DNA of 61,706 nt from Candidatus Omnitrophota bacterium. Its GTDB lineage: Bacteria > Omnitrophota > Gorgyraeia > Gorgyraeales > Gorgyraeaceae. Below, piece by piece: positions 6,153-60,450 of this stretch. The DNA lies in the NCBI GenBank assembly GCA_042571405.1, contig JBHPHU010000005.1, positions 1-61,706 on the forward strand, given 5' to 3'. The position numbers and the translations under genes are program-made. The notes under the pieces are model-generated. The model worked only from the letters and a program-made list of their open reading frames with translations. It searched no databases and was not told the origin of the DNA. Position 1 is the first letter of the stretch, and each line of letters starts with the position of its first letter.

Positions 6153-7300
6153 AATTAGCAATAATAGGCCCATACCCGCTGGATAATAATACCGATAACA
6201 TGCATGGCGGGGTCCAGGCAGTGGCAGTGAATTTACTAAAAGGACTTTTGAGATTCAATGACCTTGATATACATGTGCTTACTGTTAGCCATGCCATAGA
6301 TAAGGACAGGGATTTTAGATCCAATGGTTTTACCATGCATGCCGTAGCCGCGGACAATAGATTCGGGAATATCACGTTTTACTCAAAAGCAAGAAAGAGG
6401 ATTTGCAGAAAGATAGATGACATAAGGCCTGACCTGATACATTCGCATATGCTTGGATATCATACGCTGGCAGCATTAGAAAGCGGACATACAAAGGTGC
6501 TTGTGAGCACTCATGGCATAACTGAAGGCAATTGGGGAGTGTCCTGCACGCTTATGGATAAAATGAGGCGATATCTTCAAGACTGCATACACGAGAAATG
6601 TCTAAAGAGGGCTGAAAACATTATAGTAAATAGCAGGTTTTCAGAGGATTTCCTGAAGAGTTATAAGATCAGAAATATTTACAGGTTAAACAATCCGATC
6701 TCTGATGCATTCTTTAATATAGACACGGATAAGGAAGAAGAAAACAGGATTTTATTTGTAGGGAATATCTCTGAGGCAAAAGGTGTAGCCACGCTTATGG
6801 AGGCAGTAAGGATCTTAAAGGATTCATTTAAAAATATAAAGGTTATGGTAGCAGGGCCTATGAGTGATAGTAATTTTTATGAGAAATTAAGAGGTTTTAT
6901 AAAGGAGAATGATCTGGTCGAAGCAGTTCATTTTTTGGGCCATCTAAATGAGAATAAACTGATAGAGGAGTACATAAAGGCTTCTATATTTGTTTTTCCT
7001 TCACAGCAGGATATAGCCCCGCTCGCGCTTTTACAGGCAATGGCCTGTGGTAAGGCCGTAGTTACTACAAGGGTGGGAGGCATACCTTATATCGTGGATG
7101 ATGGTGTGGACGGATTTTTGGTAAACAACAAAGACCCTAAAGCCCTGGCAGGCAGGGTGGCGGTATTATTAAGAGATAAGTCTTTACGCAAGGATTTAGG
7201 AGATAACGCGAAAAAAAAGATCTCAGGGAATTACAAGATAGATTCTGTGACAGAGGAGCTTTACGGGATATATAGAAAGGTTACCTCTTCCACCTCGTAG
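6149..7300 (+). CDS. Glycosyltransferase family 4
   Basis: ILFVGNISEAKG and FVFPS..D.APLALLQAMACG GT-B motifs; the stop codon lies in a palindrome. Confidence 0.85.
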   Translation: MKLAIIGPYPLDNNTDNMHGGVQAVAVNLLKGLLRFNDLDIHVLTVSHAIDKDRDFRSNGFTMHAVAADNRFGNITFYSKARKRICRKIDDIRPDLIHSHMLGYHTLAALESGHTKVLVSTHGITEGNWGVSCTLMDKMRRYLQDCIHEKCLKRAENIIVNSRFSEDFLKSYKIRNIYRLNNPISDAFFNIDTDKEEENRILFVGNISEAKGVATLMEAVRILKDSFKNIKVMVAGPMSDSNFYEKLRGFIKENDLVEAVHFLGHLNENKLIEEYIKASIFVFPSQQDIAPLALLQAMACGKAVVTTRVGGIPYIVDDGVDGFLVNNKDPKALAGRVAVLLRDKSLRKDLGDNAKKKISGNYKIDSVTEELYGIYRKVTSSTS

Positions 7301-7311
7301 GTGGAAGAGGT
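7283..7311. repeat. Palindrome family A, one unit (13-bp stem, CGT loop)
   Basis: ACCTCTTCCACCT-CGT-AGGTGGAAGAGGT; contains the TAG stop of the upstream gene. Confidence 0.85.
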
Positions 7312-7320
7312 CCAAAGGTT

Positions 7321-8517
7321 ATGTTAAATATAAAACAAATTTCTAATTATAGAGAGTTCGAAGGCTGCAAAGGCATATGGAATGATTTGCTGGAGAAAAG
7401 CAATGTAGACAATGTCTTTATGACTTACGAGTGGGTCGATACATATATAAAGCATTTCTGCTCTTCTCAGAGATTATTGATACTGAATGTCTTTGAAGGC
7501 GACAGATTAATAGGGATAGCGCCTCTAATGATAAGAAAATCTAAATACCTTGGTTTACCTGTTAGGGTTGTTTCTTTTGTGGGCGCGGGAGTATCAGACA
7601 GGATGGATTTTATACTGACAGGCGATAAAGAAAAGGCCATATATCTGGTATTAGATTATCTGATGGGGATCAAGTCAGAATGGGATCTTATAGACCTTGA
7701 GGAGATCTCGGAAGATAGTCCTAGCGCAGGGATCATCGGAAAATGGCTGCGGGAAAAGAATGTCTTGAGTTTTTCAGGACCCCAAAAGAGATCATTTTTT
7801 ATACAGTTTGATGGTAATAGGCGATTGCTTATTGACAAATTTTCCGGAAAGCTCAACAAAAAACTGGTGAAGCTAAACAATAAGAACATCAAAATGGACA
7901 TGGACCCGCCAAAAAGCGCGGCGAGGCCTGCGCAAAATATGTCTTCTGGGCAGATTTTGCTTGGCTTTAAAAGATACAGGGTAAGACCCAGTGAGGCGGA
8001 AGGGCTTTTTTCAGATATATGCGATGTAGAGAGCCGCAGCTGGCAGGGAAAAGAGCAGAAGGGCATTTTTTCAAAAAAACCCAGCAGGGATTTTCACAAG
8101 GAGATATTTGATAGATTTTCAAAGAATGGACAGCTGGATATTTCGATTCTTATATCAGAAAAAAAGCCAATAGCTTATATCTATAACTACCTGTATGGTG
8201 GACGTTCCTATAATTACAATATTGCCTTTGACGATGTACACAAGGATCTTTCTGTTGGAACCATGCTTATGTTCTGGATGCTGAAAGATTCTGCCGCGGG
8301 TGATATTTTAGAGTTTGATTTTATAAGGGGCGAAGAGCCATGGAAGAAGAGATTGACGGATTCTTTTAAGCTCCATGATCGCGTTAGGATCTTTAAAGGC
8401 AGTTTTTATTCCAGGTACCTATATATATTACAGTCAAAGATTATGCCTTATTTTAGAAAGAAAAGCATGCTTCGCAAGATGTGGATAAATATTAAGGAGA
8501 GACTGGGATGGCGTTAA
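7321..8517 (+). CDS. GNAT family acetyltransferase (CelD/BcsL-like)
   Basis: FMTYEW, LIGIAPL, SVGTML and FDFIRGEEPWK motifs typical of EPS-linked Acetyltransf_6 proteins. Confidence 0.8.
   Translation: MLNIKQISNYREFEGCKGIWNDLLEKSNVDNVFMTYEWVDTYIKHFCSSQRLLILNVFEGDRLIGIAPLMIRKSKYLGLPVRVVSFVGAGVSDRMDFILTGDKEKAIYLVLDYLMGIKSEWDLIDLEEISEDSPSAGIIGKWLREKNVLSFSGPQKRSFFIQFDGNRRLLIDKFSGKLNKKLVKLNNKNIKMDMDPPKSAARPAQNMSSGQILLGFKRYRVRPSEAEGLFSDICDVESRSWQGKEQKGIFSKKPSRDFHKEIFDRFSKNGQLDISILISEKKPIAYIYNYLYGGRSYNYNIAFDDVHKDLSVGTMLMFWMLKDSAAGDILEFDFIRGEEPWKKRLTDSFKLHDRVRIFKGSFYSRYLYILQSKIMPYFRKKSMLRKMWINIKERLGWR
7901..7961 (+). repeat. Double-hairpin element family C, diverged in-frame copy
   Basis: 35 of the first 38 nt match 52281-52318, followed by GATTTTGCT at the same spacing; encodes DPPKSAARPAQNMSSGQILL. 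Confidence 0.85.
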
Positions 8518-11990: not shown

Positions 11991-12294
11991 ATGGGGCAAG
12001 GATGTATGGTTGTTGCATCTTGAAGCGGACAACAATAACGGAGGCGTTAAATCCATTGTCTATTCTCATGTTACTTATAATGGCAATGGCGGTTTAAATG
12101 GGCCCAAAACCACTGTCTCTGTAAAATCAGGCGAGAGCCGCAGACTGATAGTATCCAAAAACAGCATTGATGAAGTGGGAGTGGATATCGGGTTTGAAAA
12201 AGGGCTTAAAGTAAAGGTCTTCAGGCTTCAGGACAGGGCTTATCTGCCCGGGAATTCTGATATAGTCTTTTCAAGCGAGGGCACATTAAATTGA
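11971..12294 (+). CDS. Hypothetical protein, translationally coupled to the radical SAM gene
   Basis: GGAGG RBS; overlaps both neighbours; beta-rich; ends DRAYLP. Confidence 0.6.
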   Translation: MGSLRHKWGKDVWLLHLEADNNNGGVKSIVYSHVTYNGNGGLNGPKTTVSVKSGESRRLIVSKNSIDEVGVDIGFEKGLKVKVFRLQDRAYLPGNSDIVFSSEGTLN

Positions 12295-14528
12295 AAAAAA
12301 TAACTTTTCTTAATTCAACTTTGAATATTGGCGGGGCTGAAAAGCTAGGCTATGAGATAGCGCAAGGTCTTGATAAGACCAGATTTAGCGTTAAATCAAT
12401 TTGTCTTTATGGGCCGGGTGTTATTGGAGAAAGGCTTGTCTCAGAAGGCATGGTTCTTACACATAGCCTCATGCGCAACAAATACGATTTTTTAGCTATT
12501 TTTAGATTAATAAAGATACTGAGGAAAGAAAAGATAGACGTGCTGCATCTTGAGAGTTCGCCATTGGTTTTATTTTTGGGATTCATATGCGGCAGGATAG
12601 CCAGGATTCCGCGTATTTCTACAACGATCCATACCATGAGAAAACCAGAAGCGTGGAAGAGATATAAATCAGGCATTATAAATAAATTGATATTGCGCAG
12701 GTTAGACAGAATAAGCGTGCCTTCAAAGATTAAATACGATTCCCTTATAAAAGAGTATGGACTTGACCAGAAAAAGCTCGAGCTGATCCAAAACGGCATA
12801 GATATAAAGAAGTTTGACAGGCTGAAAAAGGCCAATGGGTTAAAAAAGGAATTAGGCATCTCGCGCGATAAGAAGATCATAGGTATGGTAGGAAGATTAG
12901 TGAATGAAAAGGCGCATGATGTTTTTCTAAAAGCAGCGGGGTATATTATCGAATCCGAGCCGGATGTAAAATTTTTGATCATAGGAGACGGCAAAGAAAA
13001 GAAGGAACTGAAGGCGTTAGCGGATAACCTGGGCATTTCAAAAGACGTGATATTTTTTGGCAAAGGTACGCAGGATATCCCGGGACTTATTTCTATATTT
13101 GACGTAGCAGTGCTTTCCTCAAGAATGGAATTGTTTCCCCTGGTGTTATTGGAATACATGGCGGCATCCAAACCTATAGTAGCGACAAGGGTAGGCGGAA
13201 ATCCTGAGATCATCACGCATGGCGAGTCAGGGATCATTGTGCCGCCTGAGGATCCAAAGGCCCTTGCGGAGAATGTCATCGCGCTATTAAAGGACAAGGA
13301 CAGGGGCCGCAATATGGCAGCTCTCGCGAGAAAGAGGGTTAAGCAGGAATTTTCTCTGGAGAAGATGATAGAGAGAATGGAGAGATTTTTCCTGAATCCT
13401 TTGCCGGGACCTTTTAAAACTCACATAATCATGGCAGGCCCAGGCCTTTCAGTGAAAGGCGGGATATCATCTTTTGCGAAAAATTATCTGAGCTCACAAT
13501 CGCCGGAAGGCTTGAGAATAACATATCACGCGACAACAATAGACGGCAGTAAAGCGCTCAAGATCTTTTTCTTTGTAAAAAGCCTTTTGACGTTTGTCGC
13601 TAAATTAGTTTTTGACAGGACCATAAAGATAATCCATATCTGCAGCGCCTCAAGAGGCAGTTTTTACAGAAAAGCTATCATATTGATCTTATCCAAGCTT
13701 TTTAAGAAGGCTACTGTATTTCATATACATGGCGGAGGTTTTCATTTGTTCCACAACAGGGGGACTGCCCTAAGAAGATTTTTCGTAAGAAAGATATTGG
13801 CTGTAACTGATTCCATAATAGTCTTGTCAGAGTCATGTCGTTTAGATATTGAAGGGATCACAGAGAATAGAAATATAAAGGTGATACCTAATCCCATAGA
13901 CACATCTGATTTTGTGTCGATCAGAGGCAGTAGAGATCATTCCAATCTGAATGTTTTTACCGCAGGCAGGCTTTACTGGCTCAAAGGCACATATGACATA
14001 TTGGACATAATTCCGCGCGTCTTAAAAGAGGTGCCTGGCGTGAAGTTTTGCTTTGCGGGAGATGGGGACGTGGAAAAGGTCAGGCAGATCGTCAGGGATA
14101 AGGGAATAGAAAAGAACGTATTTTTGCCAGGCTGGCTTGATAAGGATGGATTAGTAAAGAGGCTTCAAGACTCCAGTATATTTTTACTGCCTTCATATAC
14201 CGAAGGGCTTCCCGTGGCTATGCTTGAGGCAATGGCCTCAGGGTTGCCTGTAGTTTCTACAAGAGTAGGCGGTATACCTGAGCTGGTAGAGGATGGCGTG
14301 AATGGATTTTTAGTAGAACCCGGGGAAAAGCAAAAACTGGGGGATAAGATCATAGAGTTACTAAAGGACGCGGATCTAAGGGATAAGATGAGTAAGAATA
14401 ATACGGATAAGATAGATTCACTGTTCAGATTGGACCGTATAGTAGGTAAATTCTACGAAGAATACGACCGCTTGATCAAGCACTTGGTGGGGGGGGGGCC
14501 CCCCGCCACCAAGTGCTTCACCAGGTAA
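12291..14528 (+). CDS. Tandem double GT4 glycosyltransferase
   Basis: Two complete GT-B units: GGAEK...ELFPLVLLEYMA and GGISS...EGLPVAMLEAMASG. Confidence 0.85.
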   Translation: MKKITFLNSTLNIGGAEKLGYEIAQGLDKTRFSVKSICLYGPGVIGERLVSEGMVLTHSLMRNKYDFLAIFRLIKILRKEKIDVLHLESSPLVLFLGFICGRIARIPRISTTIHTMRKPEAWKRYKSGIINKLILRRLDRISVPSKIKYDSLIKEYGLDQKKLELIQNGIDIKKFDRLKKANGLKKELGISRDKKIIGMVGRLVNEKAHDVFLKAAGYIIESEPDVKFLIIGDGKEKKELKALADNLGISKDVIFFGKGTQDIPGLISIFDVAVLSSRMELFPLVLLEYMAASKPIVATRVGGNPEIITHGESGIIVPPEDPKALAENVIALLKDKDRGRNMAALARKRVKQEFSLEKMIERMERFFLNPLPGPFKTHIIMAGPGLSVKGGISSFAKNYLSSQSPEGLRITYHATTIDGSKALKIFFFVKSLLTFVAKLVFDRTIKIIHICSASRGSFYRKAIILILSKLFKKATVFHIHGGGFHLFHNRGTALRRFFVRKILAVTDSIIVLSESCRLDIEGITENRNIKVIPNPIDTSDFVSIRGSRDHSNLNVFTAGRLYWLKGTYDILDIIPRVLKEVPGVKFCFAGDGDVEKVRQIVRDKGIEKNVFLPGWLDKDGLVKRLQDSSIFLLPSYTEGLPVAMLEAMASGLPVVSTRVGGIPELVEDGVNGFLVEPGEKQKLGDKIIELLKDADLRDKMSKNNTDKIDSLFRLDRIVGKFYEEYDRLIKHLVGGGPPATKCFTR
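14478..14518. repeat. 41-bp near-perfect palindrome with a G10/C6 centre
   Basis: AAGCACTTGGTGG ... CCACCAAGTGCTT arms; encodes KHLVGGGPPATKC at the GT C-terminus. Confidence 0.85.
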
Positions 14529-14529: not shown

Positions 14530-16491
14530 TTGGGATGGTATGTTAAGAGGTTGTCGTGTATGTCTATTCCTGAGGTTATTCACAGGATAGGCAGGATGAT
14601 ACAGGTTGAGGTAAAGAGGTCTTCTGGAGTTAAGGTAAATTTAGACAGGCTTTTGAAGAAGGAGATTACGCCGCGCATATTTTATTTTGAATACGATAAG
14701 GCGGTAATGGAATTTTCAAGGCTTTTCCCTGACAGATTAAAGGATATTGTCAGAGAAGCTGATAAGATTTGCGCTCATAAGTTTAAGATATTTAATTTAG
14801 ATTGGGATGCCGGTAAGGACATAGATTGGCATAAAGATATTTTTACAGGCAAAACATGGCCTTTGGCCTACCATGCGGATATAGATTTTAGAAATGACCA
14901 TGATTCCAAGGAGATACGGTTTATATGGGAATTAAACAGGCACCAGCATCTTGTAACATTGGCCAAGGCATATTTTTTGACAAAGGATGAAAAATATAAA
15001 AAAGAGGCAAAGGACCAGATCTTTTCATGGATAAGGCAGAACCCTCCCTATAAAGGAGTTAACTGGACAAGCGCGCTTGAGTCGAGTTTGAGATTGATAT
15101 CATGGTCCTGGGTTTGTAAGTTTATAGAGCCGGGGGGAGGCAGGTATAAATTTTTTAAATCAGTATATCAACAGGCTGAATTTATAGAGCATAATCTTTC
15201 TAAATATTCATCTGCGAATAATCATCTGATAGGCGAGGCGTGCGGCTTAATAATTACAGCGTTAAGTTTTCCGGAATTTAAGGATTCTGACAGGTGGCTG
15301 GATAAAGGTAAATCTATATTGTTCAGGGAGATACTGGGGCAAGTGCATACTGATGGAGTCGCAAAGGAACAGGCGTTTCATTATCAGGGATTTATTATGG
15401 AATTTTTTACGCTCGCAGTACAGCTCCTGATAAGAAACAATATAGAAATCCCCAAGGAGGTCATGGACAGGTTTTTTTCTATGTCGGAATTTGTGATGAA
15501 TATCATTGATTCTAAAGGCAAGGTACCTCTTGTTGGAGATTCTGACGATGGAAGGGCTGTAAGATTGTCCAGTAGCGAGGACTTCAGCCTGTTTAAATCC
15601 ATTTTGACCAGCGCTTGTATTTTATCTCAGAGGGGTGATTTCAAAAACAAGGGCAGTGCTTTTGGCGAAGAGCATTTTTGGATTTTCGGGGTCAATGGGC
15701 ATAAGGTTTACAGGTCTGTCAGGGTGAAAAAGCCAAAACTGCGTTCAAGACTTTTTGAAAAAGGCGGCTATGCTGTTTTTAGAAATGGCAGAGACGAAGT
15801 TCTTTTGATGGATTGCGGAGAACTGGGTTACAGGTCAATAGCGGCTCATGGCCATGCGGATCTTTTGAGTGTGACGCTGGTTGCCAGCGGCGCAGAGCTC
15901 TTAGTGGATCCTGGAACTTATTTATATCATACGGGAGGCGCGTGGAGGGACTATTTTAGGGGCACAAGGGCCCATAATACAGTTACGCTGGACGATAATA
16001 ATCAGTCAGAGATAACAGGCCCTTTTATGTGGGGCAGAAGGCCTTTACCCAGAATAGAGAAGTGGAAAAGTTCCGAAAACGTGGATTATATATCCGCCGC
16101 GTATAAAAATTCCAAGATCGGACACAGAAGGACCATTTGTTTTGACAAAAAGAAAGGGCTCTGGCGCATAGAGGATTTTTTGAATACATCCGGGCAGAGC
16201 GCGGTAAAGCAGTATTTTCACTTGCATCCGGCAGCAAAGATCAGGCTATTGAATTCCCATGTGATCGAGGTAGAGAATCAAGGGGTATATTTGTACATAA
16301 CATTGGATAGCAGTTTGACAGTTGATATAAAAAAGGGCAGGTTGGATCCTATTCTGGGCTGGAGCTCGGATATATTCGGCACGAAAGTAGAGAGCCCGAC
16401 GCTTGTCAATACAGCTGTTATAAACAGCTCTGGAAAATTCACAACGCTTTTGCGCGTCTCAAATAGAAAGTTATCGAGGGCAGAAATATGA
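14530..16491 (+). CDS. Heparinase II/III-family (alginate-lyase-like) protein
   Basis: WELNRHQHL, NNHLIGE, HGHADLLS, DPGTY and RAHNTV motifs; start uncertain (TTG 14530 or ATG 14560). Confidence 0.85.
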   Translation: MGWYVKRLSCMSIPEVIHRIGRMIQVEVKRSSGVKVNLDRLLKKEITPRIFYFEYDKAVMEFSRLFPDRLKDIVREADKICAHKFKIFNLDWDAGKDIDWHKDIFTGKTWPLAYHADIDFRNDHDSKEIRFIWELNRHQHLVTLAKAYFLTKDEKYKKEAKDQIFSWIRQNPPYKGVNWTSALESSLRLISWSWVCKFIEPGGGRYKFFKSVYQQAEFIEHNLSKYSSANNHLIGEACGLIITALSFPEFKDSDRWLDKGKSILFREILGQVHTDGVAKEQAFHYQGFIMEFFTLAVQLLIRNNIEIPKEVMDRFFSMSEFVMNIIDSKGKVPLVGDSDDGRAVRLSSSEDFSLFKSILTSACILSQRGDFKNKGSAFGEEHFWIFGVNGHKVYRSVRVKKPKLRSRLFEKGGYAVFRNGRDEVLLMDCGELGYRSIAAHGHADLLSVTLVASGAELLVDPGTYLYHTGGAWRDYFRGTRAHNTVTLDDNNQSEITGPFMWGRRPLPRIEKWKSSENVDYISAAYKNSKIGHRRTICFDKKKGLWRIEDFLNTSGQSAVKQYFHLHPAAKIRLLNSHVIEVENQGVYLYITLDSSLTVDIKKGRLDPILGWSSDIFGTKVESPTLVNTAVINSSGKFTTLLRVSNRKLSRAEI

Positions 16492-17762
16492 AGAAAAAAA
16501 AGACTTTAAGCGTATTTGGGCTTGGATATGTAGGCGTGGTCACGGCAGCTTGTCTGGCCGAACAGGGTTATCGTATCATAGGAGTTGATGTCAGCAGGAA
16601 AAAGCTGGACCTTATAAACAAAGGCAAGAGCCCTATTGTTGAGAAAGGCATTGACGGCCTTGTATCTAAGACAGTTAAGGCAAAGAGGTTTTGCGTAACT
16701 GACTCCGCGATGTACGCGGTATCAAATAGCGAAGTTTCAATAGTGTGCGTTGGCACTCCTTCTATGGAAAACGGCGCAATAGAACTTTCGCATCTTAAAA
16801 ATGTCTCAAGAGAGATAGGATATGCCCTAAAGGGACTGCGAAGATATCATATAGTAGTCATAAGAAGCACTATGATGCCGGGCACAACAGAAGAGGTCGT
16901 TATTCCTATTATAGAAAAGGCCTCGTCTAAAAAGGCGTTTAAGGATTTTGGCGTGCTGGTCAATCCTGAATTCATGAGAGAGGGCAATTCCATAGAGGAT
17001 TTTTATGCTCCGGCAAAGGTGATAATAGGGAGCAGGAAAAAGCAGGATGAGAAAATCATGCGCTTGATCTATGATTTTGTTAAAGCGCCTGTTATCTCAA
17101 CAGATTTCAGGACAGCGGAATTTTCAAAATATCTGGACAATGTTTTTCACGGTCTAAAGATCGTATTTGCTAATGAGATCGGGGCTTTTTCCGAGAGATT
17201 CGGCCTGGATGGAAAAAAGGCCATGGAGATACTGTGCATGGATAAAAAGTCAAATATATCAGGCAGGTATCTTCAGCCCGGGTTTGCCTTTGGAGGATCG
17301 TGTCTTCCAAAGGATCTAAAGGCAGTCTTGCATAAGACAAAGACAGGGGAACTGGATCTACCGCTTCTGGAATCTATCATGAGGAGCAATGGCTTGACTA
17401 TCAAGAGGGCATTCGAGGGGATTAAAAAGACAGGCAAGAAAAAGGTCGCGATGCTGGGCCTGAGCTTTAAACCCGGGACAGATGATCTAAGAGAGAGTCA
17501 GATGGTCAGATTGGCGGAGCTTTTAATAGGCAAGGGCTATAAGTTGAAGATATACGATAAAAATGTATCTCTTGCGGCATTGATGGGCGCAAACAAGGCT
17601 TACATAGAAAATGAGATACCGCACATAGCATCACTTTTATGTGGATCCATTGACGAGGTAATAAGGACTTCAGAGGTGATCGTGGTAGGGCATTCCGCGA
17701 AGGAGTTCAGGAAAGCCATAAAGAAAATAAAAAAGAACCAGGTTTTAATAGACCTAACATAA
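16488..17762 (+). CDS. Nucleotide-sugar 6-dehydrogenase, GDP-mannose dehydrogenase (AlgD)-like
   Basis: GLGYVG, NPEFMREG, PGFAFGGSCLPKD and FKPGTDDLRES motifs. Confidence 0.85.
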   Translation: MKKKKTLSVFGLGYVGVVTAACLAEQGYRIIGVDVSRKKLDLINKGKSPIVEKGIDGLVSKTVKAKRFCVTDSAMYAVSNSEVSIVCVGTPSMENGAIELSHLKNVSREIGYALKGLRRYHIVVIRSTMMPGTTEEVVIPIIEKASSKKAFKDFGVLVNPEFMREGNSIEDFYAPAKVIIGSRKKQDEKIMRLIYDFVKAPVISTDFRTAEFSKYLDNVFHGLKIVFANEIGAFSERFGLDGKKAMEILCMDKKSNISGRYLQPGFAFGGSCLPKDLKAVLHKTKTGELDLPLLESIMRSNGLTIKRAFEGIKKTGKKKVAMLGLSFKPGTDDLRESQMVRLAELLIGKGYKLKIYDKNVSLAALMGANKAYIENEIPHIASLLCGSIDEVIRTSEVIVVGHSAKEFRKAIKKIKKNQVLIDLT

Positions 17763-17764: not shown

Positions 17765-17819
17765 ACCTCTCCGACCTCGTAGGTCGACCTACGAGGTCGA
17801 CCTACGAGGTCGGAGAGGT
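17765..17819. repeat. Palindrome family A, three 13-bp units (55 bp, 26-bp stem)
   Basis: ACCTCTCC-GACCTCGTAGGTC-GACCTACGAGGTC-GACCTACGAGGTC-GGAGAGGT. Confidence 0.9.
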
Positions 17820-24481: not shown

Positions 24482-24493
24482 AAGGAGGGTGTC

Positions 24494-43508: not shown

Positions 43509-43540
43509 CTAAATTAGTAATCTATGCTATTACGGCTTAG

Positions 43541-43578
43541 TAGTAGGGGACCCTTAAGGGTCCCCTACATTGTGGATA
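43541..43578 (+). repeat. 38-bp direct repeat copy 2
   Basis: Identical to 35384-35421; 12 bp from the comM stop; runs into TGTGGATAA (43571-43579). Confidence 0.92.
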
Positions 43579-43590
43579 ACTGTTTTATGT

Positions 43591-45111
43591 CTATGTTTTA
43601 TCTAGGCTTCTTAGTTGTATAGCCTCAGAGACGTGATTTGCTTCAATATGGGGTTTGTCTTCCAGGTCAGCTATGGTTCTTGAGATTTTCAGGATCTTGT
43701 CGTAGCATCTTGCGCTGAAGCCTAGTTCTGTTATTGCTTGTTTGAGGAGATTTTGTGAAGTTTCGTCTAGTTTGCAGTATGTTCTTATAAGCTTATGAGA
43801 CATTTGGGAATTTGCGAAGATGCCATGAGCTTTAAATCTACAGAGTTGTATTTTTCTTGCGGCTTCAACTCTTTCTTTTATTGCTTCTGACTTTTCGCTA
43901 CAGGTCTCGTCTGAGAGTTCTTTATATCTGAGAGGAGGGACCTCTATATGAATATCGATCCTGTCCAAGAGCGGTCCTGAGATCCTTGACATATATTTCT
44001 GTATTCTTGGAGACGCGCAAATACATTCTTTTTTAGGGTCAGTCAGAAAACCGCACGGGCATGGGTTCATCGAAGCTACAAGAGTAAACTTGGATGGGAA
44101 TTTCATTGTAGCGCTTACCCTGGAGATAGTTACATAGCCGTCTTCAAGAGGCTGTCGCAGTGCTTCCAGGACATTCCTGTGAAATTCAGGCAGTTCGTCC
44201 ATGAAAAGCACGCCGTTATGCGCCAGGCTCACTTCGCCTGGCTTTGGCGCGCTCCCACCGCCTACAAGTGACGAATCAGAGGAGGTGTGATGCGGCGTTC
44301 TGAAGGGCCTTGTGTTTATCATAGCCTTTTTTGTTGGGACAAGGCCGCATATGCTGTATATTTTTGTAGTCTCGATAGCTTCTTCAAGCGTCATATCAGG
44401 CATGATCGTGGGCAGTCTTTTAGCGAGCATTGTCTTACCGCTGCCAGGAGGCCCTATCATGATTATATTGTGACCTCCTGCTGCGGCGATCTCCATGGCC
44501 CTCTTTGCGTAGACCTGGCCTTTTACGTCTGAGAAATCAACTTCATAGTCATGTTTTTTATTTAGATGAGTCTGCGCGGTATAAGGTAAGGGAGAAAGAG
44601 AATTTCTGTCTTTTATGAAATTGCATACGTTATTGAGCTTGTCTACGGGATAGACTTCCAGGCCTTCCACTACACTGGCTTCATATGCGTTTTCTTCAGG
44701 CAGGATCAGTTTTTTATGTGAGTTTTTCAAAGAAATCGCAATAGGCAGGACCCCCTTTACGGGTCTTATCCTGCCGTTCAGGGCAAGCTCTCCTAGAAAT
44801 ACAAAATCCTTTATGTCCTTATAAGCTATCTGTTCGGATGCAACAAGTACGCCTATTGCTATAGGAAGGTCAAAGCACGGACCTTCTTTTTTTATGTTGC
44901 ATGGCGCGAGATTTACCGTTATCTTTTTAGAAGGGTAAATGAAATGGCTGTTTTTTATGGCTGAGCGCACCCTGTCCCTGGATTCACGTATAGCAGTATC
45001 AGGAAGACCTACAATAGTCACTTGTGGCAGCCCGCTAGCTATATCTACTTCAACCTCGATTTCCTTTGCTTCAATTCCAATAGTGGTTGCTGAAAACACC
45101 TTTGATAACAT
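43591..45111 (-). CDS. comM: ComM/YifB Mg-chelatase-like AAA+ ATPase
   Basis: [37 protein letters not shown] and NPCPCG motifs. Confidence 0.95.
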
Positions 45112-49403: not shown

Positions 49404-49491
49404 GCCGGAGTGGCGGAATTGGCTGACGCGCACGACTCAAAATCGTGTGAGGCGACCCCTCGTGTGGGTTCGACTCCCACCTCCGGCACCA
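49404..49491 (+). tRNA. tRNA-Leu(CAA)
   Basis: GCCGGAG/CTCCGGC acceptor stem, CACGA-CTCAAAA-TCGTG anticodon arm, long variable arm, TTCGACT loop and encoded CCA. Confidence 0.96.
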
Positions 49492-49567
49492 TGAACCACT
49501 CGCTAAGAATACAAGTTAAGTGATATCTTCGCTCGGGTTCATGGCAGGCCATTAGACACCGGGGCGT

Positions 49568-49618
49568 GCCCCGTTCCAAATTGCCCGATTTTAAGAATGG
49601 GGCAATTTGGAATGGGGC
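49568..49618. repeat. 19-bp inverted repeat overlapping the tRNA-Ala 5' end
   Basis: GCCCCGTTCCAAATTGCCC / GGGCAATTTGGAATGGGGC with one G-U pair. Confidence 0.8.
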
Positions 49619-49687
49619 TGTAGTGAAGCGGGATCACACGACAATGGCATTGTCGCATCACGGGTTCGATTCCCGTCAGCTCCACCA
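49614..49687 (+). tRNA. tRNA-Ala(GGC)
   Basis: GGGGCTG/CAGCTCC acceptor with G3:U70, CGACA-ATGGCAT-TGTCG arm (A32/U38), TTCGATT loop and encoded CCA. Confidence 0.95.
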
Positions 49688-49778
49688 CCCTACGTTCACA
49701 TGGGGCTATTCTTCGTAGCATACTTCGGGTGGCGAGCCACCTTTAGTCTTCGAAGCATGTTACAGGTGTAATAAGCTT

Positions 49779-52274
49779 ATGAGCGAATTTTATCCTTTTA
49801 AGAAAATCGAGAAGAAGTGGCAGAAGGCATGGGAGAGGCAGGGGCTTTTTAAGATGGACCCCGAGTCTTCCAAGGATAAGTATTATTGCCTGATGATGTT
49901 TCCGTATCCGTCTGCCTCATTGCATGTAGGACATGGCAGGAACTATATTATAGGAGATGTTGTAGCGCGTTACAAGATCATGCATAAGCTTAATGTCCTG
50001 GCGCCAATGGGCTGGGACGCGTTTGGTCTTCCCGCAGAAAATGCTGCTATAAAAAGCGGCATCCACCCCAAGATTTCTACATTAAATAATATAAAGACAA
50101 TGAAGAAACAGCTCAATGCCTGGGGCGTGGGGTATGACTGGGATAGAGAGATCGCTTCATGTATGCCTGATTATTACAAATGGACACAGTGGATATTTTT
50201 AGAGCTCTATAAAAAGGGCCTTGCCTATAAGAAAAAAGCTCAGGTCAATTGGTGCCCCTCTTGTCAGACAGTGCTTGCAAATGAGCAGGTAGTGGATGGC
50301 GCGTGCGAAAGGTGTTCCGCTGAAGTTGAGCTGCGTAGTCTCGAACAATGGTTTTTCAAGATAACTGATTACGCGCAGAGGCTTCTGGATGATTTGAGTC
50401 TGTTAAAGGATTGGCCGGAGCGGGTAAGGATCATGCAGAAGAACTGGATCGGCAGGAGCGAGGGCGTTGAGATAGATTTTAAGCTCGCAGATGATGGTCA
50501 AGGCGAAACCTCCGCCAGCTTAGCTGGCGGAGGTTTCGCCTTGACGTGTTTTACCACCAGGGTGGATACAATCTATGGCGCTACATATATGGTGCTTGCC
50601 GCGGAACATCCAATGGTTGAGGAGCTTATAAAAGGTTCTGATAAAGAAAATGATATAAAAAAATTCATCGCAGACGTTAAAAAGGAAAGTTTTACGGACA
50701 GGGTTTCAGCTACTGCTGAGAAAAAAGGCGTATTTACAGGCAGATTTGTCATAAACCCCGTGAATGGTAAAAAGATCCCGCTGTGGATTTCGAATTATGT
50801 GCTGATGGAATATGGTACAGGCGCGGTAATGGCAGTGCCTGCGCATGATGAGAGAGACTTTGAGTTTGCGAAAAAGTATGACTTAGAGATAGTGGTTGTG
50901 ATCGATAATCCAAAAGAGCGCCTTGATGCAAAGAGCATGAAACAGGCTTTTGTAGAAGAAGGGGTTATGGTGAATTCCAGCCAATTCAATGGCCTGCCAA
51001 GTCTTGAGGCAATTGAAAAAATCTCAGATTATATGGAAAAAGAAAAGATAGGAAGAAGAAAGATCCATTATAAACTGCGAGACTGGCTTATCTCCAGGCA
51101 AAGGTATTGGGGCGCGCCCATACCTATGGTGTATTGTGAAAAATGCGGCATACAGCCGGTAGATGAAAAAGATCTTCCGGTTCTTTTGCCTGAAAAGGTT
51201 AAGTTTAAACCTCGTGGTGAATCGCCATTAAAAGATGCGGAGAGTTTTGTCAATACAAAATGCCCTAAATGTAAATCCAAAGCTCGACGAGAAATCGACA
51301 CAATGGATACATTCGTGGATTCTAGCTGGTATTTTCTGAGATTCTTATCTCCAAAAAACAACAAAAATCCTTTTGATAAAGAATTAGTCAATAAGTGGCT
51401 TCCTGTAGATCAATATATCGGAGGCGTGGAACATGCGATTCTGCATTTAATGTATTCAAGATTTATCGTAAAGGTGCTTCATGACTTGGGTCACGTGGGT
51501 TTTAAAGAACCATTCGCCAAACTCTTTACACAGGGGATGATCGTAAAAGACGGCGCAAAGATGTCCAAGTCAAAAGGCAATGTCGTGAGTCCTGACGCGC
51601 TTATAGAGAAATACGGCGCGGACACAGTGAGGTTTTACACATTGTTTATCGGCCCGCCTGAAAAAGACGCGGAGTGGAATGATCGCGGCGTCGAAGGCGC
51701 GTGGAGGTTTCTTAACCGAGTGTGGCGACTTGTGGAACGGGATACGGGGAACGGGATACGGGGAACGGGGGATGGAAATAAAATTTCATCTCTTAAGCGA
51801 AAGACACATTTTACTATTAAAAAAGTTACAGAAGATATAGAAGGCGCTTTTCATTTCAATACAGCATTAAGCGCGATAATGGAATTAGTAAATGAGATTT
51901 ATTCTATCCCGAATCCCGAATCCCGAATCCCGAATCCCGAATTAAAAAAAGCCATAGAAACAGTCGTGATCCTCCTTGCGCCTTTTGTGCCGCATATTGC
52001 TGAGGAGATGTGGGAGATATTAGGGAATAAAAAGAGCGTATTTGAAGCAGACTGGCCGGGATATGACGAGGCTGCGCTTGTTCAGGATAGGATCACCATG
52101 CCGGTTCAGGTAAATGGCAGGGTGCGCTCAAGGATAGAAGTTGGATCAAGCGCGGATGAAGAAGAGATAAAAAAGATTGTCATGGAAGATCCCCTGGTTA
52201 GTAAATGGACCCAAGGCAAACCACCCAAGAAAATTATTGTTGTAAAAGGAAGATTAGTAAATCTCGTGGTATAA
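49779..52274 (+). CDS. leuS: Leucine-tRNA ligase
   Basis: MFPYPS..LHVGH, GTGAVMAVPAHDERD, DWLISRQRYWG and KMSKSKGN motifs. Confidence 0.98.
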   Translation: MSEFYPFKKIEKKWQKAWERQGLFKMDPESSKDKYYCLMMFPYPSASLHVGHGRNYIIGDVVARYKIMHKLNVLAPMGWDAFGLPAENAAIKSGIHPKISTLNNIKTMKKQLNAWGVGYDWDREIASCMPDYYKWTQWIFLELYKKGLAYKKKAQVNWCPSCQTVLANEQVVDGACERCSAEVELRSLEQWFFKITDYAQRLLDDLSLLKDWPERVRIMQKNWIGRSEGVEIDFKLADDGQGETSASLAGGGFALTCFTTRVDTIYGATYMVLAAEHPMVEELIKGSDKENDIKKFIADVKKESFTDRVSATAEKKGVFTGRFVINPVNGKKIPLWISNYVLMEYGTGAVMAVPAHDERDFEFAKKYDLEIVVVIDNPKERLDAKSMKQAFVEEGVMVNSSQFNGLPSLEAIEKISDYMEKEKIGRRKIHYKLRDWLISRQRYWGAPIPMVYCEKCGIQPVDEKDLPVLLPEKVKFKPRGESPLKDAESFVNTKCPKCKSKARREIDTMDTFVDSSWYFLRFLSPKNNKNPFDKELVNKWLPVDQYIGGVEHAILHLMYSRFIVKVLHDLGHVGFKEPFAKLFTQGMIVKDGAKMSKSKGNVVSPDALIEKYGADTVRFYTLFIGPPEKDAEWNDRGVEGAWRFLNRVWRLVERDTGNGIRGTGDGNKISSLKRKTHFTIKKVTEDIEGAFHFNTALSAIMELVNEIYSIPNPESRIPNPELKKAIETVVILLAPFVPHIAEEMWEILGNKKSVFEADWPGYDEAALVQDRITMPVQVNGRVRSRIEVGSSADEEEIKKIVMEDPLVSKWTQGKPPKKIIVVKGRLVNLVV
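50497..50545. repeat. Perfect 24-bp-arm palindrome in frame in leuS
   Basis: GTCAAGGCGAAACCTCCGCCAGCT-T-AGCTGGCGGAGGTTTCGCCTTGAC. Confidence 0.95.
51734..51942. repeat. Pair of mutually complementary 7-bp tandem arrays in leuS
   Basis: (GGAACGG/GATACGG)x5 at 51734-51768 and (ATCCCGA)x5 at 51906-51940. Confidence 0.88.
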
Positions 52275-57288: not shown

Positions 57289-58797
57289 ATGCATAAAAGA
57301 CCCCTTGCAGTCATTTGTATTTTCTTCATAATAGGGATTGTTTTAGCGAAGTTCCTGCCCGATTTTGTTAAATTTTCTCATATATTTGCAATAACTTTAA
57401 TCTTCATTTCATCGTCTTTACTTCTCAATCTGCCCTACAGTGGGTTGGAGGCAGGAAGAGAGAAAGCAGCGAATGCTCTTTTACTCTTATCAGTTATTTC
57501 CTTTGCCACACTTCTGTATGTAAATTCCAATATTTTTCCGACTAATCATATTAGCCATTTTTTGGGAGAAGAAAAACTCAAAGCCAACATCGCCGGTATC
57601 ATAAAAAGCCCGGCACTGACGCGGAAGCCGTATTATGGCAAGATTAATTCTACGTATATGTTTGAAGTAGAGGCGATAAAGGCTGAAGGCTCTAGGCTCA
57701 AGGCTGGAGGGGAGTGGTTGGGCGTAACTGGTTTATCGCAGATCAGAATACAAACTGAAAAAGATTATCAATATGGCGATAGACTGTTAGTAAGAGGTAC
57801 GATAAGGAGGCCTGCCAGTGATGCTTCTCGACTTCGCTCGAAGAATATTGAAGGGAATAATGTTCGAGCGAAGTCGAGAACATTTAATTATAGGGAATTT
57901 TTAGAAAGACAAAATATATTCGCCCTTATAAATACGAAAGAAAATAATATTACTGTCCTATCTCATGATTACAAATCAAATCCTATCCTGAAATACACAT
58001 ATCTTCTCCGCGAAAAACTTAAAAATCAGATCCTCGAAAAGATGCCTCTTGAAAGCGGCGCATTCCTGAGGGCGATTCTCCTCGGCGATCGCTCTGAACT
58101 CCCAAAACATATTCAAACCTCCTTTAAAAACTCCGGCACAGTACATGTTTTGGCAATAAGTGGACTGCATATTGGGATCATTGCGCTTGTGTTCCTTTAT
58201 CTCTTCAGGCTCTTGAGGTTCAGAAGAGAATTCTCTTATATATTGACTATAATATTTTTGATATTTTTTGCTATACTTACGCTCTCAAGGCCGTCGGTTG
58301 TAAGGGCAGTAGCGATGGCTGCTATTTTTCTTACAGGTATGCTCTTAGGGAAGAAGGTGGATGTGTATAATTCTTTAGGAGCAGCAGCGCTTTTTATATT
58401 GATCAGGAATCCCAAGGATATTTCTAATATCGGATTCCAGCTATCTTTTGCGGCAGTACTTTTTATATTATTCTTTACGCCCAAATTCATGAGGTTTGTG
58501 AAAGAGGGGACTAATTTCTATATAAAAAGATATTTGTATACGCCTTTGGCAGTCTCAATGTCAGCATGGCTAGGCACATTTAGTTTGGTATGGTATTACT
58601 TTAAGATCGTGACGCCTATTGCTATTATTGCCAATCTTTTTATAATCCCTGCCATTTTTGCATTATTGATAGGCGGCTTGGGGTTTCTCTTGTTGGGCTG
58701 GGCGCCATTTATAGGAGATTTTCTGGCAGGCCTTAATGATTTTCTATGCCAGGCGATCTTTTTCCTCGCAAGTTTCTTTGCTAAGCTTGCATTTTAG
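57289..58797 (+). CDS. comEC: ComEC/Rec2 competence channel without a C-terminal metallo-beta-lactamase domain
   Basis: FNYREFL, AILLGDR, HVLAISGLH, PSVVRA and GFQLSF motifs. Confidence 0.9.
   Translation: MHKRPLAVICIFFIIGIVLAKFLPDFVKFSHIFAITLIFISSSLLLNLPYSGLEAGREKAANALLLLSVISFATLLYVNSNIFPTNHISHFLGEEKLKANIAGIIKSPALTRKPYYGKINSTYMFEVEAIKAEGSRLKAGGEWLGVTGLSQIRIQTEKDYQYGDRLLVRGTIRRPASDASRLRSKNIEGNNVRAKSRTFNYREFLERQNIFALINTKENNITVLSHDYKSNPILKYTYLLREKLKNQILEKMPLESGAFLRAILLGDRSELPKHIQTSFKNSGTVHVLAISGLHIGIIALVFLYLFRLLRFRREFSYILTIIFLIFFAILTLSRPSVVRAVAMAAIFLTGMLLGKKVDVYNSLGAAALFILIRNPKDISNIGFQLSFAAVLFILFFTPKFMRFVKEGTNFYIKRYLYTPLAVSMSAWLGTFSLVWYYFKIVTPIAIIANLFIIPAIFALLIGGLGFLLLGWAPFIGDFLAGLNDFLCQAIFFLASFFAKLAF
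57680..57710 (+). repeat. 7-bp tandem array (AGGCTNN)x4 in frame in comEC
   Basis: AGGCTGA AGGCTCT AGGCTCA AGGCTGG AGG; encodes KAEGSRLKAGG. Confidence 0.75.
57825..57880. repeat. Perfect 18-bp inverted repeat with a 20-nt spacer, in frame in comEC
   Basis: TTCTCGACTTCGCTCGAA / TTCGAGCGAAGTCGAGAA. Confidence 0.92.
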
Positions 58798-58836: not shown

Positions 58837-59784
58837 ATGAAGAAACAAGGTATTATAGCTTTAATATTGCTTATATATTATATATCAGCGGCTCCGGCGT
58901 ATGCTTTCTGGGTGTGGACTCCTGAAAGCGGTAAATGGGAGAACCCTAAGTACGCGGCAAAGGATACGCCTGAAGAGCAGATGGAGTATGCCAAGGGTTT
59001 TTATGAGGCCAAGAATTACAAGCTGGCCCTGAGGGAGTTCAAGAAATTGATCAAGTATTATCCGCTAGCCAAAGAAGCGCCATCCGCTCAATATTATATA
59101 GGCCGTATCATGGAAGACCTGGCTAAGCCGTACGCAGCATTCAAGGCGTATCAAAAGGTAATAGACCTTTATCCTTATACAGATTTTGTGGATGAGGTAA
59201 TTGAGAGGGAATTCAAGATAGGCAATATGTTTCTATCAGGTGAGAAGGTGAGTGTCCTGGGACCTTTAAAGATGCCAGCTAAAGATAAGGCAATAGAGAT
59301 ATTCAAGGCAGTGGCTGAGACTTCTCCTTATGGAAAGTATGCAGACCAGGCAGTGTTTAAAACAGGCTTAGCCTATAAAGACATAGCTGATTATGACAGC
59401 GCTATAATGAGCTTCAAAGAAGTCATAGATAAATATCCTGATTCAGAGCTTGTTGATACAGCGAGGTATAAGCTGGCAGAGTGTTCAAAATTATTGTCGT
59501 TGAAACCTGATTATGATCAGACACCTACTATAGCTGCCAGGGAGGAATTCGAGGAGTTCATAGAAAAGCACCCTGATAGTGAGATATCAGAAGATGCCAA
59601 GGAGATAGTTATTAAACTTAAGGATAGAGAGGCAGAGAATGCGTATAAGGTAGCAGAATTTTATGAGTCAAGGCGCATGAATGAGAGCGCAGTTATATAT
59701 TATGAGGACATAATCAGGAATTATCCAGGCACACAATGGGCCAAAAAAGCTCAGGAGCGACTAGGTGAAATCAAAAAGAAGTAG
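58837..59784 (+). CDS. bamD: BamD-like TPR outer-membrane assembly factor
   Basis: Signal peptide, TPRs ending YP.S/YP.T and YDQT.T..A..EF..F...HPDS; adjacent to lptE. Confidence 0.75.
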   Translation: MKKQGIIALILLIYYISAAPAYAFWVWTPESGKWENPKYAAKDTPEEQMEYAKGFYEAKNYKLALREFKKLIKYYPLAKEAPSAQYYIGRIMEDLAKPYAAFKAYQKVIDLYPYTDFVDEVIEREFKIGNMFLSGEKVSVLGPLKMPAKDKAIEIFKAVAETSPYGKYADQAVFKTGLAYKDIADYDSAIMSFKEVIDKYPDSELVDTARYKLAECSKLLSLKPDYDQTPTIAAREEFEEFIEKHPDSEISEDAKEIVIKLKDREAENAYKVAEFYESRRMNESAVIYYEDIIRNYPGTQWAKKAQERLGEIKKK

Positions 59785-60331
59785 TTTGCGACTATCCGCT
59801 ATCCGCTATCCACTATCCGCTATAATGTGCGTTATAATATTATCCGGTTGTGGTTATACTACAGGTGTTGTTCTTCCCAATAACATAAAAACAATCCAGG
59901 TCGCTATATTCAAAAACAAGATTGACATAACAAAAGAAGTGAGCGCAAAAGATAAATATGAGGTTTACAGGCCAAATCTCGAGGTGGATCTAAGGGACGC
60001 GATAATAGAGAGGGTTTTTCTGGATGGTAATTTAAAGGTAGCCTCAGGGAGCATTGCCAATGCTATTCTCTCAGGCGAGATCACGCAATACAGAAAGGAT
60101 CCTTTAAGATATCAAAATGAAGAGGTGCGTGAATACAGGATAAGCCTGGTATGTGATTTTAAATTATTAGATTCCGGAAACGGAGAGGTGTTAATAGAAG
60201 AAGACGGCATTACAGGAGATACGACCTATTTCACCACTGGTACGCTTCAGAAGAGCGAGACATCTGCCTTAACCAATGCAATGCAGGATCTTGCCAGAAG
60301 AATAGTTAATAGAATAGTTGAGAGCTGGTAA
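59765..60331 (+). CDS. lptE: LPS assembly lipoprotein LptE
   Basis: Lipobox LSGCGY, LP..IKTI and DLARRIV; upstream of holA. Confidence 0.8.
   Translation: MKSKRSSLRLSAIRYPLSAIMCVIILSGCGYTTGVVLPNNIKTIQVAIFKNKIDITKEVSAKDKYEVYRPNLEVDLRDAIIERVFLDGNLKVASGSIANAILSGEITQYRKDPLRYQNEEVREYRISLVCDFKLLDSGNGEVLIEEDGITGDTTYFTTGTLQKSETSALTNAMQDLARRIVNRIVESW
59792..59822 (+). repeat. 7-bp tandem array (CTATCCG)x4 in the lptE signal peptide
   Basis: CTATCCG CTATCCG CTATCCA CTATCCG CTA; encodes LSAIRYPLSA. Confidence 0.85.
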
Positions 60332-60342
60332 TAACAATATAA

Positions 60343-60450
60343 TTCCAAATGTCAAATGACAAAATCCAAATGAATAATTTAAATCCAAATAATTAAATTA
60401 TTTGTCATTGGGTGATTCATTTGTCATTTGGGATTTGTCATTTGGGATTT
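60343..60450. repeat. Inverted pair of 7-bp arrays (NNCAAAT / ATTTGNN) between lptE and holA
   Basis: TCCAAAT GTCAAAT GACAAAA TCCAAAT ... ATTTGTC ATTTGGG ATTTGTC ATTTGGG. Confidence 0.85.

Follow-up and report, generated by a model that had tools for sequence, protein, structure and literature searches.

The window analysed here, a stretch of 61,706 nucleotides, is contig C5 of a metagenome-assembled genome (MAG) of a Candidatus Omnitrophota bacterium (G000; 1.156 Mb in 60 contigs, approximately 41% G+C, 60% complete by marker genes). It carries glycosyltransferase genes, genes for a GNAT and a DUF362 protein, an 8.2-kb glycosylation island, two tRNA genes, leuS, comEC and an LptE-like gene, and within and between these genes lie palindromes of 26-65 nt, with predicted hairpin stabilities of -22 to -54 kcal/mol, as well as tandem heptamer arrays (Table 1). 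All palindromes listed by a first-pass annotation made from the sequence alone were found. Seven of them are indeed in frame in intact open reading frames (ORFs), six of which match the Pfam families GNAT, DUF362, GT2, epimerase/dehydratase, leucyl-tRNA synthetase and ComEC; for the seventh, a 521-aa protein (35474-37039), the earlier name "GT-C-like" has as its sole basis a GtrII match below threshold (E 0.006). Others are placed at gene ends: A1, C2 and the palindrome at 14478 supply stop or final codons, and A2 follows a stop codon. Among three palindromes regarded as singletons, that at 14478 remains one, with no second full copy found in the genome, whereas those at 50497 and 57825 belong to families of five (D) and seven (E) genome copies. 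The heptamer arrays are likewise present, at five loci instead of the four counted before.

Table 1 Positions of palindromes, heptamer arrays and transposase-associated features in the window and elsewhere
Feature	Position	Strand	Context
Family A palindrome A1	7283-7311		Core CCTCGTAGG; provides the TAG stop of glycosyltransferase ORF 6149-7300
Family C palindrome C1	7903-7967	+	Inside GNAT ORF 7321-8517; encodes ~20 residues
41-nt palindrome	14478-14518		Last 16 codons of glycosyltransferase ORF 12291-14528
Family A palindrome A2	17765-17819		55 nt, intergenic; begins 3 nt past stop of ORF 16488-17762
Family B palindrome B1	18681-18720		In frame in DUF362 ORF 17831-19255; peptide PCTDALSGHRVRTG
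GTAG-ended palindrome	35386-35411		Left border of 8.2-kb minus-strand glycosylation island; within 41-nt direct repeat
Family A palindrome	36162-36214		In frame in 521-aa ORF 35474-37039; peptide PIRPRRSTYEVDLRGRMG
Family B palindrome	39382-39421		In frame in GT2 ORF 38567-39514; peptide PVQMRCLDTASVQD
Family C palindrome C2	40183-40247	+	3' end (last 9 codons and stop) of minus-strand aminotransferase ORF 40219-41388
Family B palindrome	41604-41645		In frame in epimerase/dehydratase ORF 41408-42448; peptide DPVQMRCLDTASVQG
GTAG-ended palindrome	43543-43568		Right border of glycosylation island
Family D palindrome	50497-50545		Perfect, 49 nt; in frame in leuS editing domain; peptide GQGETSASLAGGGFALT
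Heptamer array	51734-51770	+	GGGATAC/GGGGAAC, in frame in leuS
Heptamer array	51906-51942	+	ATCCCGA x5.3, perfect, in frame in leuS; roughly complementary to 51734 array
Family C palindrome C3	52283-52347	+	Between leuS and next gene
Heptamer array	57679-57705	+	AAGGCTC, in frame in comEC; GAACGGT-type array at that position in G001
Family E palindrome	57825-57880		In frame in comEC ORF 57289-58797
Heptamer array	59792-59823	+	CTATCCG, signal-peptide region of LptE-like ORF 59765-60331
110-nt hairpin	60341-60450		Both arms consist of inverted heptamer arrays (CCAAATG type); lies just before the DNA polymerase III delta gene
Heptamer array	60417-60450		One arm of the 110-nt hairpin
Family C copies outside window	C11:1674-1709, C11:7854-7894, C2:15986-16026, C9:31950-32007, C9:15234-15302, C3:52907-52966		
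Transposase (RAYT) gene	G000:C8		Identical 42-nt family A palindromes on both sides
RAYT gene	G000:C27		Own palindrome family on both sides
RAYT gene	G000:C6		Half a palindrome of family D (the leuS insert family) forms the gene end
RAYT gene	G001:C13		Family B on both sides
RAYT gene	G001:C28		Family D adjoining
RAYT gene	G001:C2		GTAG palindromes adjoining
RAYT gene	G002:C107		Family A variant on both sides
RAYT gene	G002:C20		Bracketed by AAAAAAGCCGAGG...CCTCGGCTTTTTT hairpin, found in leuS of G001 and G002
Repeat ends of Y1 gene	C9:35389-35470, C9:36150-36210		GTAGGGTGTCCCCAAATGGGACGTCC terminal inverted repeat
Repeat ends of Y1 gene	C38:1490-1545, C38:2190-2240		GTAGGGTGTCCCCAAATGGGACGTCC terminal inverted repeat
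Solo repeat ends	C12:21430, C12:25069		GTAGGGTGTCCCCAAATGGGACGTCC type

Palindrome families and their location in genes

The genome-wide inverted-repeat scan showed that the palindromes form dispersed families far above chance. Perfect inverted repeats with an arm of at least 10 and a loop of at most 6 numbered 112 in the genome and 17 in two Markov shuffles counted together; with an arm of at least 12, the numbers were 56 and 1. When two mismatches were allowed, we obtained 239 palindromes and at least 10 families, labelled A-J. A GTAG tag is present in family A and in the GTAG family, and is missing from families B (GTAC), D and E. Compensatory arm changes, noted before for families B and C, are visible, and in families A, B and C the two arms have changed symmetrically. 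Template switching in quasipalindromes would also give such symmetric changes, which need not reflect selection on RNA. Across 63 elements, the flanking direct repeats match those of 2000 random positions, so that there is no target-site duplication.

Family C measures 65 nt in the window, and its copies are 74-95% alike. It is built of TTGAC, a conserved head (CCGCCAAAAAGCGTGGCGAGGTC), a hairpin with compensated variable arms and a closing CTTGAC(A). Viewed as a miniature inverted-repeat transposable element, it is without terminal inverted repeats, has direct TTGAC...TTGAC at its bounds and faces a single TGGAC at the empty GNAT site. In four of nine copies a -10-like hexamer follows 17 nt after the TTGAC(A) end; judged from this spacing, a -35 box may be part of the element or be duplicated by it. 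An Rfam scan of the window returned two tRNAs only, with no match for family C. In family H (AGATGATCACAGAT...; C15:24921, C30:6137, C24:7252, C4:40403) the flanks are also inverted repeats, giving an element of approximately 70 nt, and all of these copies are intergenic.

We then related the palindromes to crude ORF calls (longest non-overlapping ORFs of at least 90 aa; 1004 ORFs covering 91.8% of bases). Among the 83 strong palindromes, i.e. those with at least 14 pairs, 27 lie deep inside ORFs (more than 30 nt from an ORF end), 17 at ORF ends and 39 between genes. The elements are thus still enriched in the intergenic fraction, which makes up only approximately 8% of the genome. Family B is distributed differently, with 11 of 13 copies deep within ORFs whose lengths range from 293 to over 4000 aa and whose products include radical SAM, GH94, RACo, PMT_2 and deacetylase proteins. 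Of these 11 intragenic copies, nine use the frame that encodes PVQTRCLPKADNASVQG-type peptides, two use the second frame and none the third, which has a stop only in the TCTAGA-centred variants. The family was found in two of 61 genomes sampled in the class, with 11 palindromes here and three in the congener G001, where two of the three flank a transposase gene; BLAST of the window copies found none in the second congener, G002. Family B has accordingly multiplied in this lineage only.

All examined intragenic copies keep the frame without a stop codon, and the added lengths (60, 45, 39, 36 and 27 nt) are multiples of three. Where usable orthologues of island genes were lacking, solved structures served as comparison: the insert in the GT2 protein coincides with a gap of 10 residues in the alignment to 5EKP, and that in the epimerase with a gap of 11-12 residues relative to 6DNT and 7YS8. 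In the 25 family genomes searched, no close relative of the epimerase was found (best 40% identical), and the congeners lack an orthologue of the 521-aa ORF. The two host proteins of family A are not paralogues, and their common part consists of 55 residues around the element. The proposal that the elements are tolerated in protein loops is supported by alignment gaps against solved homologues, and the intact frames and the frame bias suggest that the inserts may act as a peptide source. These same constraints would be needless if ribosomes bypassed the elements, or if the elements were removed from RNA or DNA to leave the proteins unchanged. Bypass of short mobile hairpins during translation is known from yeast mitochondria, and the hairpins here are very stable, but nothing direct speaks for skipping, and the frame maintenance, the added lengths and the 9:2:0 bias of family B make it highly improbable.

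Empty and replaced sites in congeners

The window was compared with G001 and G002, two congeners from the same genus, and many further genomes of the family were included, although the relatives are not independent of one another. It is collinear with contig C2 of G001 over 47,334 aligned bases, most blocks showing 81-90% identity, and DNA identity at the empty-site comparisons is 81-86%. The congeners show precise empty sites. For example, copy C1 in the GNAT gene is a precise in-frame insertion of 59-60 nt at a site that is empty in G001. Similarly, the A2 segment has 67 nt here versus 9 nt in G001, the C3 segment 71 versus 5 nt, approximately 25 nt are missing in G001 at A1, and at B1 G001 is 24 nt shorter and without palindrome. 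The left-border GTAG palindrome is missing from its position in both G001 and G002, as is an intergenic insertion of 119 nt (60338-60456) that holds the 110-nt hairpin. Outside the window, a family B copy (C22:15789) is a clean 45-nt in-frame insertion missing from both congeners, and a family A copy (contig C1:13653) is missing in G001, which is 39 nt shorter, while the G002 copy has both arms changed in step. The host region of the copy on C14 has no counterpart in the congeners, and that on C26 matches G001 over query bases 8-501 only, ending short of the element.

Collinear blocks of the window and G001 are separated by 10 short gaps (below 150 nt), each of which is accounted for by repeat elements: four are confined to the window and five to G001, and in one gap each side has a different element. 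Altogether, the same element is kept in the congener at none of 14 comparable window sites, and seven sites are empty or plain in G001 (A1, A2, B1, C1, C3, the left GTAG copy and the 119-nt hairpin). Together with the occurrence of family B in so few genomes of the class, these empty sites support the view that the elements are mobile, as the first-pass annotation had proposed.

Other positions carry a different repeat in the sister species. G001 has another small palindrome at 14478-14518, a different palindrome of roughly 110 nt at the comEC site 57825-57880 and a 21-nt in-frame GTAG palindrome in comEC where G000 reads CTGCCCTAC. At the LptE array position, CTTGTCC heptamers stand in G001 and a palindrome in G002, and the right-border site has a variant GTAG palindrome (GTAGGCCGGGTTTAAACCCGGCCTAC) in both congeners, which in G001 lies beside a transposase gene. 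The codon position C1:3981 is occupied by family B in G000, by a hairpin of family A type in G002 and by a different repeat in G001, and at C1:17536 family B stands in place of a 15-nt hairpin of both congeners. This replacement of one family by another at a single site suggests that resident hairpins may be targets. Opposite window 24466-24482, G001 (C2:54426-54516) has a GTAG palindrome nested within a TCATTGCGAG-type palindrome.

As the assembly is a MAG fragmented into 60 contigs, one might ask whether the palindromes are fold-back artefacts of assembly or amplification. Nothing speaks for this explanation, and we regard it as practically negligible: the same families recur at other sites, with their own transposase genes, in independently assembled relatives, host frames are intact, and the leuS insert sites are common to 17 relatives.

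Transposase genes and the spread of the palindromes

As had been stated, no mobilising enzyme is encoded in the window. Elsewhere in the genome there are six matches to the Y1 transposase domain (Y1_Tnp, PF01797), all above the Pfam cut-off; across the phylum, Y1_Tnp was found in 161 of 201 sampled genomes. All six ORFs match NF047646 (REP_Tyr_transpos), the model of transposases associated with repetitive extragenic palindromic (REP) sequences, as the sole match for five and as the top of two for the gene on C13. For the transposase on C8, the sole match in the PDB is E. coli TnpA-REP (4ER8, E 1e-4), with the HUH and YIxxNP tyrosine motifs aligned. In this genus, genes for such REP-associated tyrosine transposases (RAYTs) have at their flanks the palindromes that are dispersed in the genome, namely families A, B, D and GTAG and two others (Table 1). 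At 19 homologous RAYT loci in other MAGs, palindromes were found on both sides in 10, on one side in four and at neither side at threshold in five, and the palindrome cores co-vary across these loci (e.g. CAACCTCGTAGGTTG, CAACCGCGTAGGTTG and CCACCTGCCAGGTGG). Homologues of one transposase of the genome are mostly found in Candidatus Omnitrophota MAGs. The earlier proposal of mobilisation in trans is thereby strengthened; the action of the transposases we infer from their association with the elements.

We therefore consider it probable that the palindromes are REP elements, or REPINs (REP doublets forming hairpins), spread by cognate RAYTs, with the survivors filtered by frame, stops and structural tolerance. 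Each family would be served by its own RAYT, a Y1 HUH nuclease encoded elsewhere in the genome, which would cut and rejoin hairpins on single-stranded DNA and thus spread them in trans. Transposition by Y1 HUH enzymes acts on single strands, and the missing target-site duplication fits. Copies landing in genes would persist only with a length that is a multiple of three, an open frame, and a permissive loop or gene end. Since the palindromes are open in two or three frames, many copies would survive and be translated as loop inserts of 10-20 residues. Resident hairpins would moreover be preferred landing or replacement sites, so that the same codon position would come to hold different families in sister species.

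Several points weigh against this explanation. Five of the six Y1 ORFs score under the NCBIfam curated cut-off of NF047646, with one over it. The family B transposase gene was found only in G001 and not in the present assembly, which is approximately 60% complete, and among the RAYT loci of the genus none is tied to families C or E or to the heptamer arrays. Seven of the 14 window sites hold a different element in G001 instead of an empty site (14478, the leuS palindrome, the two leuS arrays counted as one, both comEC elements, the LptE array and the right GTAG copy). Such sites are not predicted by random insertion and selection, and targeting of resident hairpins must therefore be assumed. 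To our knowledge, spread of REPs driven by RAYTs has not been shown in vivo even in E. coli.

A different explanation would be that the elements are kept mainly as signals acting in cis, i.e. as terminators, mRNA stabilisers, promoter carriers or protein-binding sites, with genic copies as a by-product and mobility as secondary. The 39 of 83 palindromes on the small intergenic fraction, the 17 at gene ends, the very stable hairpins and the promoter-like end of family C in four of nine copies are in line with this, as are the GTAG palindromes bracketing the polysaccharide island, comparable to what is described for Thauera in the part of the work of Di Nocera et al. considered here (PMC3733652). 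However, conserved signals would not be expected to be lost or exchanged at all 14 comparable window sites, family B is almost wholly intragenic, and there is no Rfam family match. A role in cis is furthermore compatible with mobility, and as the main reason for the presence of the elements we consider it unlikely.

The six Y1 genes (L001-L006, on C13, C9, C38, C27, C6 and C8) have a common upstream motif, TTGAAAGAAwwT...ATGTGTCTwATAT, which probably serves all of them as promoter or operator. Around two Y1 genes, the place of REPs is taken by a terminal inverted repeat ending in GTAG (GTAGGGTGTCCCCAAATGGGACGTCC). Short tandem repeats of 7-14 nt lie directly against the outer side of this repeat at every end seen. 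This includes two solo ends on C12, one of which adjoins a transposase gene fragment.

The glycosylation island itself (35374-43594; GT2, epimerase, aminotransferase and others) is flanked by 41-nt direct repeats, each with a GTAG palindrome. In its place, G001 has approximately 5 kb of other sequence including a RAYT gene, and G002 only approximately 240 nt. A GTAG palindrome beside the gene at 43591-45111 is kept in all three genomes.

Heptamer arrays, leuS inserts and known systems

Tandem arrays were called at a Tandem Repeats Finder score of at least 40, which gave 95 arrays, 56 with a period of 7, 34 with a period of 14 and five with a period of 21; one shuffle as control gave eight, all of period 14 and none of period 7, and the comparison periods 6, 8 and 9 gave one, six and five. 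The modal array length is 31 nt, and neighbouring arrays are mostly inverted. While 40 of the 95 lie deep inside ORFs, 35 are intergenic. There are many different units (including AAATTCG, GCTTGTG and AGGCTCA) and no single G-rich G-quadruplex consensus; a few unit families, AGGCTCA and GCTTGTG among them, are found at many unlinked loci and encode recurrent peptides such as AQGSRLKA and ATSHKPQATS. As the 119-nt insertion illustrates, some arrays are inserted as whole hairpins. The arrays are a second, related class of structured repeat. The palindromes lend no support to the idea that the arrays are accumulated 7-bp duplications, because they have no target-site duplication and their flanks match the random control.

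The host gene leuS is present as one full-length copy in each genome and has three insert sites. At site 1, in the editing domain, the family D palindrome adds 12 residues relative to 13 of 19 relatives and forms a 12-residue gap against LeuS of T. thermophilus (1H3N); G001 and G002 have another hairpin there. Sites 2 and 3 flank the conserved AFHFNTALSAIMELVNEIY helix. Clear heptamer arrays occupy site 2 in seven of 19 genomes and site 3 in seven of 19, with units that differ between genomes and even genera though the arrays are near-perfect within each genome. There are none in G002 (33 and 27 nt) nor in two relatives from other families of the class. An AlphaFold2 model of LeuS (19 close relatives) was too poor for use, with a mean predicted local distance difference test (pLDDT) value of 51 and a predicted template-modelling score of 0.35; the inserts are coil with pLDDT below 50, like most of the model.

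The two leuS arrays are complementary and predicted to pair in this genome and in two other genera, across a conserved coding segment of 135 nt. We considered a conserved long-range RNA stem, which is strong here (z -4.7); however, pairing energy is gained in only three of 19 relatives, so that the stem is not a conserved structure. In leuS of the relatives L009, L010, L020 and L023, a 24-36-nt hairpin starting with CCC and ending with GGGCAGGC is nested in heptamer arrays at NNNAC^AA, lying inside the heptamer unit in the first three. G001 has the composite of this hairpin and array at both leuS sites, and approximately eight copies of the hairpin family occur in G000.

These arrays raise the question of local generation, i.e. 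whether the heptamer arrays and part of the turnover at hot spots are made in place by slippage or template switching between inverted arms, or by repeated nicking and rejoining by a Y1 enzyme. We hold this as a tentative possibility. The same two leuS positions carry near-perfect arrays whose units differ between genera, one insertion cannot yield complementary arrays over a conserved segment in three genera, arm changes in families A, B and C are symmetric, and short tandem repeats are found directly at the ends of Y1 genes flanked by inverted repeats and at related ends on C9, C38 and C12. On the other hand, the same units occur at many unlinked loci, the 119-nt inverted array is a clean insertion, and strong site-to-site pairing is confined to three of 19 leuS genes. 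Whole-unit insertion is thus favoured by the clean 119-nt insertion, and local generation by the complementary leuS arrays over the conserved coding segment and by the repeats abutting Y1 ends, and we cannot choose between the two; our best guess is that the arrays arise by slippage and template switching between inverted arms. A more far-reaching possibility, which we find rather doubtful, is that in this Omnitrophota family Y1 nucleases, hairpins and heptamer arrays are one system that continually swaps short cassettes at fixed codon positions in intact and even essential proteins. Resident hairpins and arrays would then serve as landing pads at which one family takes the place of another, the arrays being made by repeated nick-and-rejoin or template switching at element ends, and surface loops would undergo ongoing diversification by targeting and not by random insertion and selection.

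The preferred explanation of REP-like elements spread by RAYTs rests on a known kind of element. As in REP/REPIN-RAYT systems (REPtrons), the short palindromes form dispersed families, several families and RAYTs occur per genome, one Y1 HUH gene per family is bracketed by its own palindromes, a GTAG tag is seen (families A and GTAG) and target-site duplications are absent. The present system differs in its intragenic share, with 27 of the 83 strong palindromes and 11 of the 13 copies of family B placed deep in genes and not between them. Moreover, families B, D and E are without GTAG tag, and at least 10 families share a genome whose size is about 1.2-1.7 Mb. By definition, REPs are extragenic, and in models of REPIN-RAYT persistence the neutral intergenic sites available are taken to be few. 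A streamlined genome, 92% ORF by crude calls, that keeps a third of its strong hairpins in genes is therefore of interest for REP theory, with family B spreading as though coding sequence were hardly a barrier.

Rickettsia palindromic elements (RPEs) are similar in their in-frame palindromic insertion into host ORFs that stay intact. RPEs are approximately 100-150 bp long, the RPE-1 type being sequence families of Rickettsia, and we know of no transposase tied to them. The elements described here differ in their length of 26-65 nt, in their Omnitrophota host and in the cognate RAYT genes seen.

The novelty is smaller than the first-pass annotation had implied. In the portions of their study drawn on here, Di Nocera et al. 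(2013) describe GTAG/CGTC REPs that lie wholly within ORFs of known proteins, including tRNA synthetases, and encode approximately 10-30 residues; several species have them, Opitutus terrae and Rickettsia conorii the most (PMC3733652). The same portions report stop codons supplied by GTAG and, with Thauera among the species, exopolysaccharide genes flanked by GTAG repeats (PMC3733652). Intragenic position, a tRNA synthetase as host, GTAG stop codons and flanked polysaccharide genes are all shared with the present elements, whereas the empty-site and replacement evidence from congeners and a near-wholly intragenic family with frame bias go beyond those portions, whose coverage does not extend to Omnitrophota. 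REPINs have been tied to RAYTs, and insertion of REPINs into or beside REPINs is described in the sections consulted of Bertels and Rainey (2011; PMC3116915). Our literature search found no report of such elements in Omnitrophota, and the only precedent for intragenic REPINs was that of 2013. The kind of element is thus already known and so many intragenic copies are unusual; new are the degree of intragenic load, a family almost wholly intragenic with frame bias, the replacement of family by family at fixed codon positions and the tie between hairpins, heptamers and Y1 genes.

The heptamer arrays also have relatives among described repeats. Cyanobacterial short tandemly repeated repetitive (STRR) sequences are dispersed tandem heptanucleotide arrays. 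Small dispersed repeats (SDR) of Nostoc, the subject of work by Elhai et al. in 2008, reportedly comprise hairpin elements of 21-40 nt nested in heptamer arrays; the CCC...GGGCAGGC hairpin in the NNNAC^AA unit of leuS in the relatives resembles these SDR, in a different phylum and with unrelated sequence. Dispersed arrays of four heptanucleotide repeats, within and between genes, are described for Geobacter metallireducens in the excerpt considered here (PMC2700814), and GGGNATC heptamer arrays of Xanthomonas and Nostoc in the corresponding excerpt of a further study (PMC4692102). As far as these excerpts go, the 7-nt unit, the approximately four units per array, the position within and between genes and the unexplained origin are common to both, whereas here there are many unrelated units instead of one G-rich consensus, frequent inverted hairpin-forming pairs, 40 of 95 arrays deep in ORFs, and position-conserved but sequence-variable arrays in an essential synthetase.

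Heptamer arrays, long noticed but unexplained, are here linked to hairpins and Y1 gene ends, which makes their origin testable. The elements further offer a natural experiment on the tolerance of enzymes to in-frame insertion, on mutual targeting of hairpins and on the origin of new loop peptides. For genomes of uncultured bacteria they have practical consequences, as they break assemblies, shift predicted gene ends and add spurious-looking low-complexity loops to proteins.

Further differences from G001 concern whole genes of the window. The gene at 29051-30268, which has no Pfam match, is missing from G001, where 10 nt stand in its place (window 29034-30247), and a 1.17-kb stretch joining two histidine-kinase genes (window 32221-33387) is likewise missing, with 12 nt there. 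Between the two tRNA genes (49404-49488 and 49614-49684; window 49404-49780) lies a palindrome of 58 nt. The 3' part of the second tRNA, together with downstream sequence, recurs on C1, C35 and C51 and at many loci of G001.

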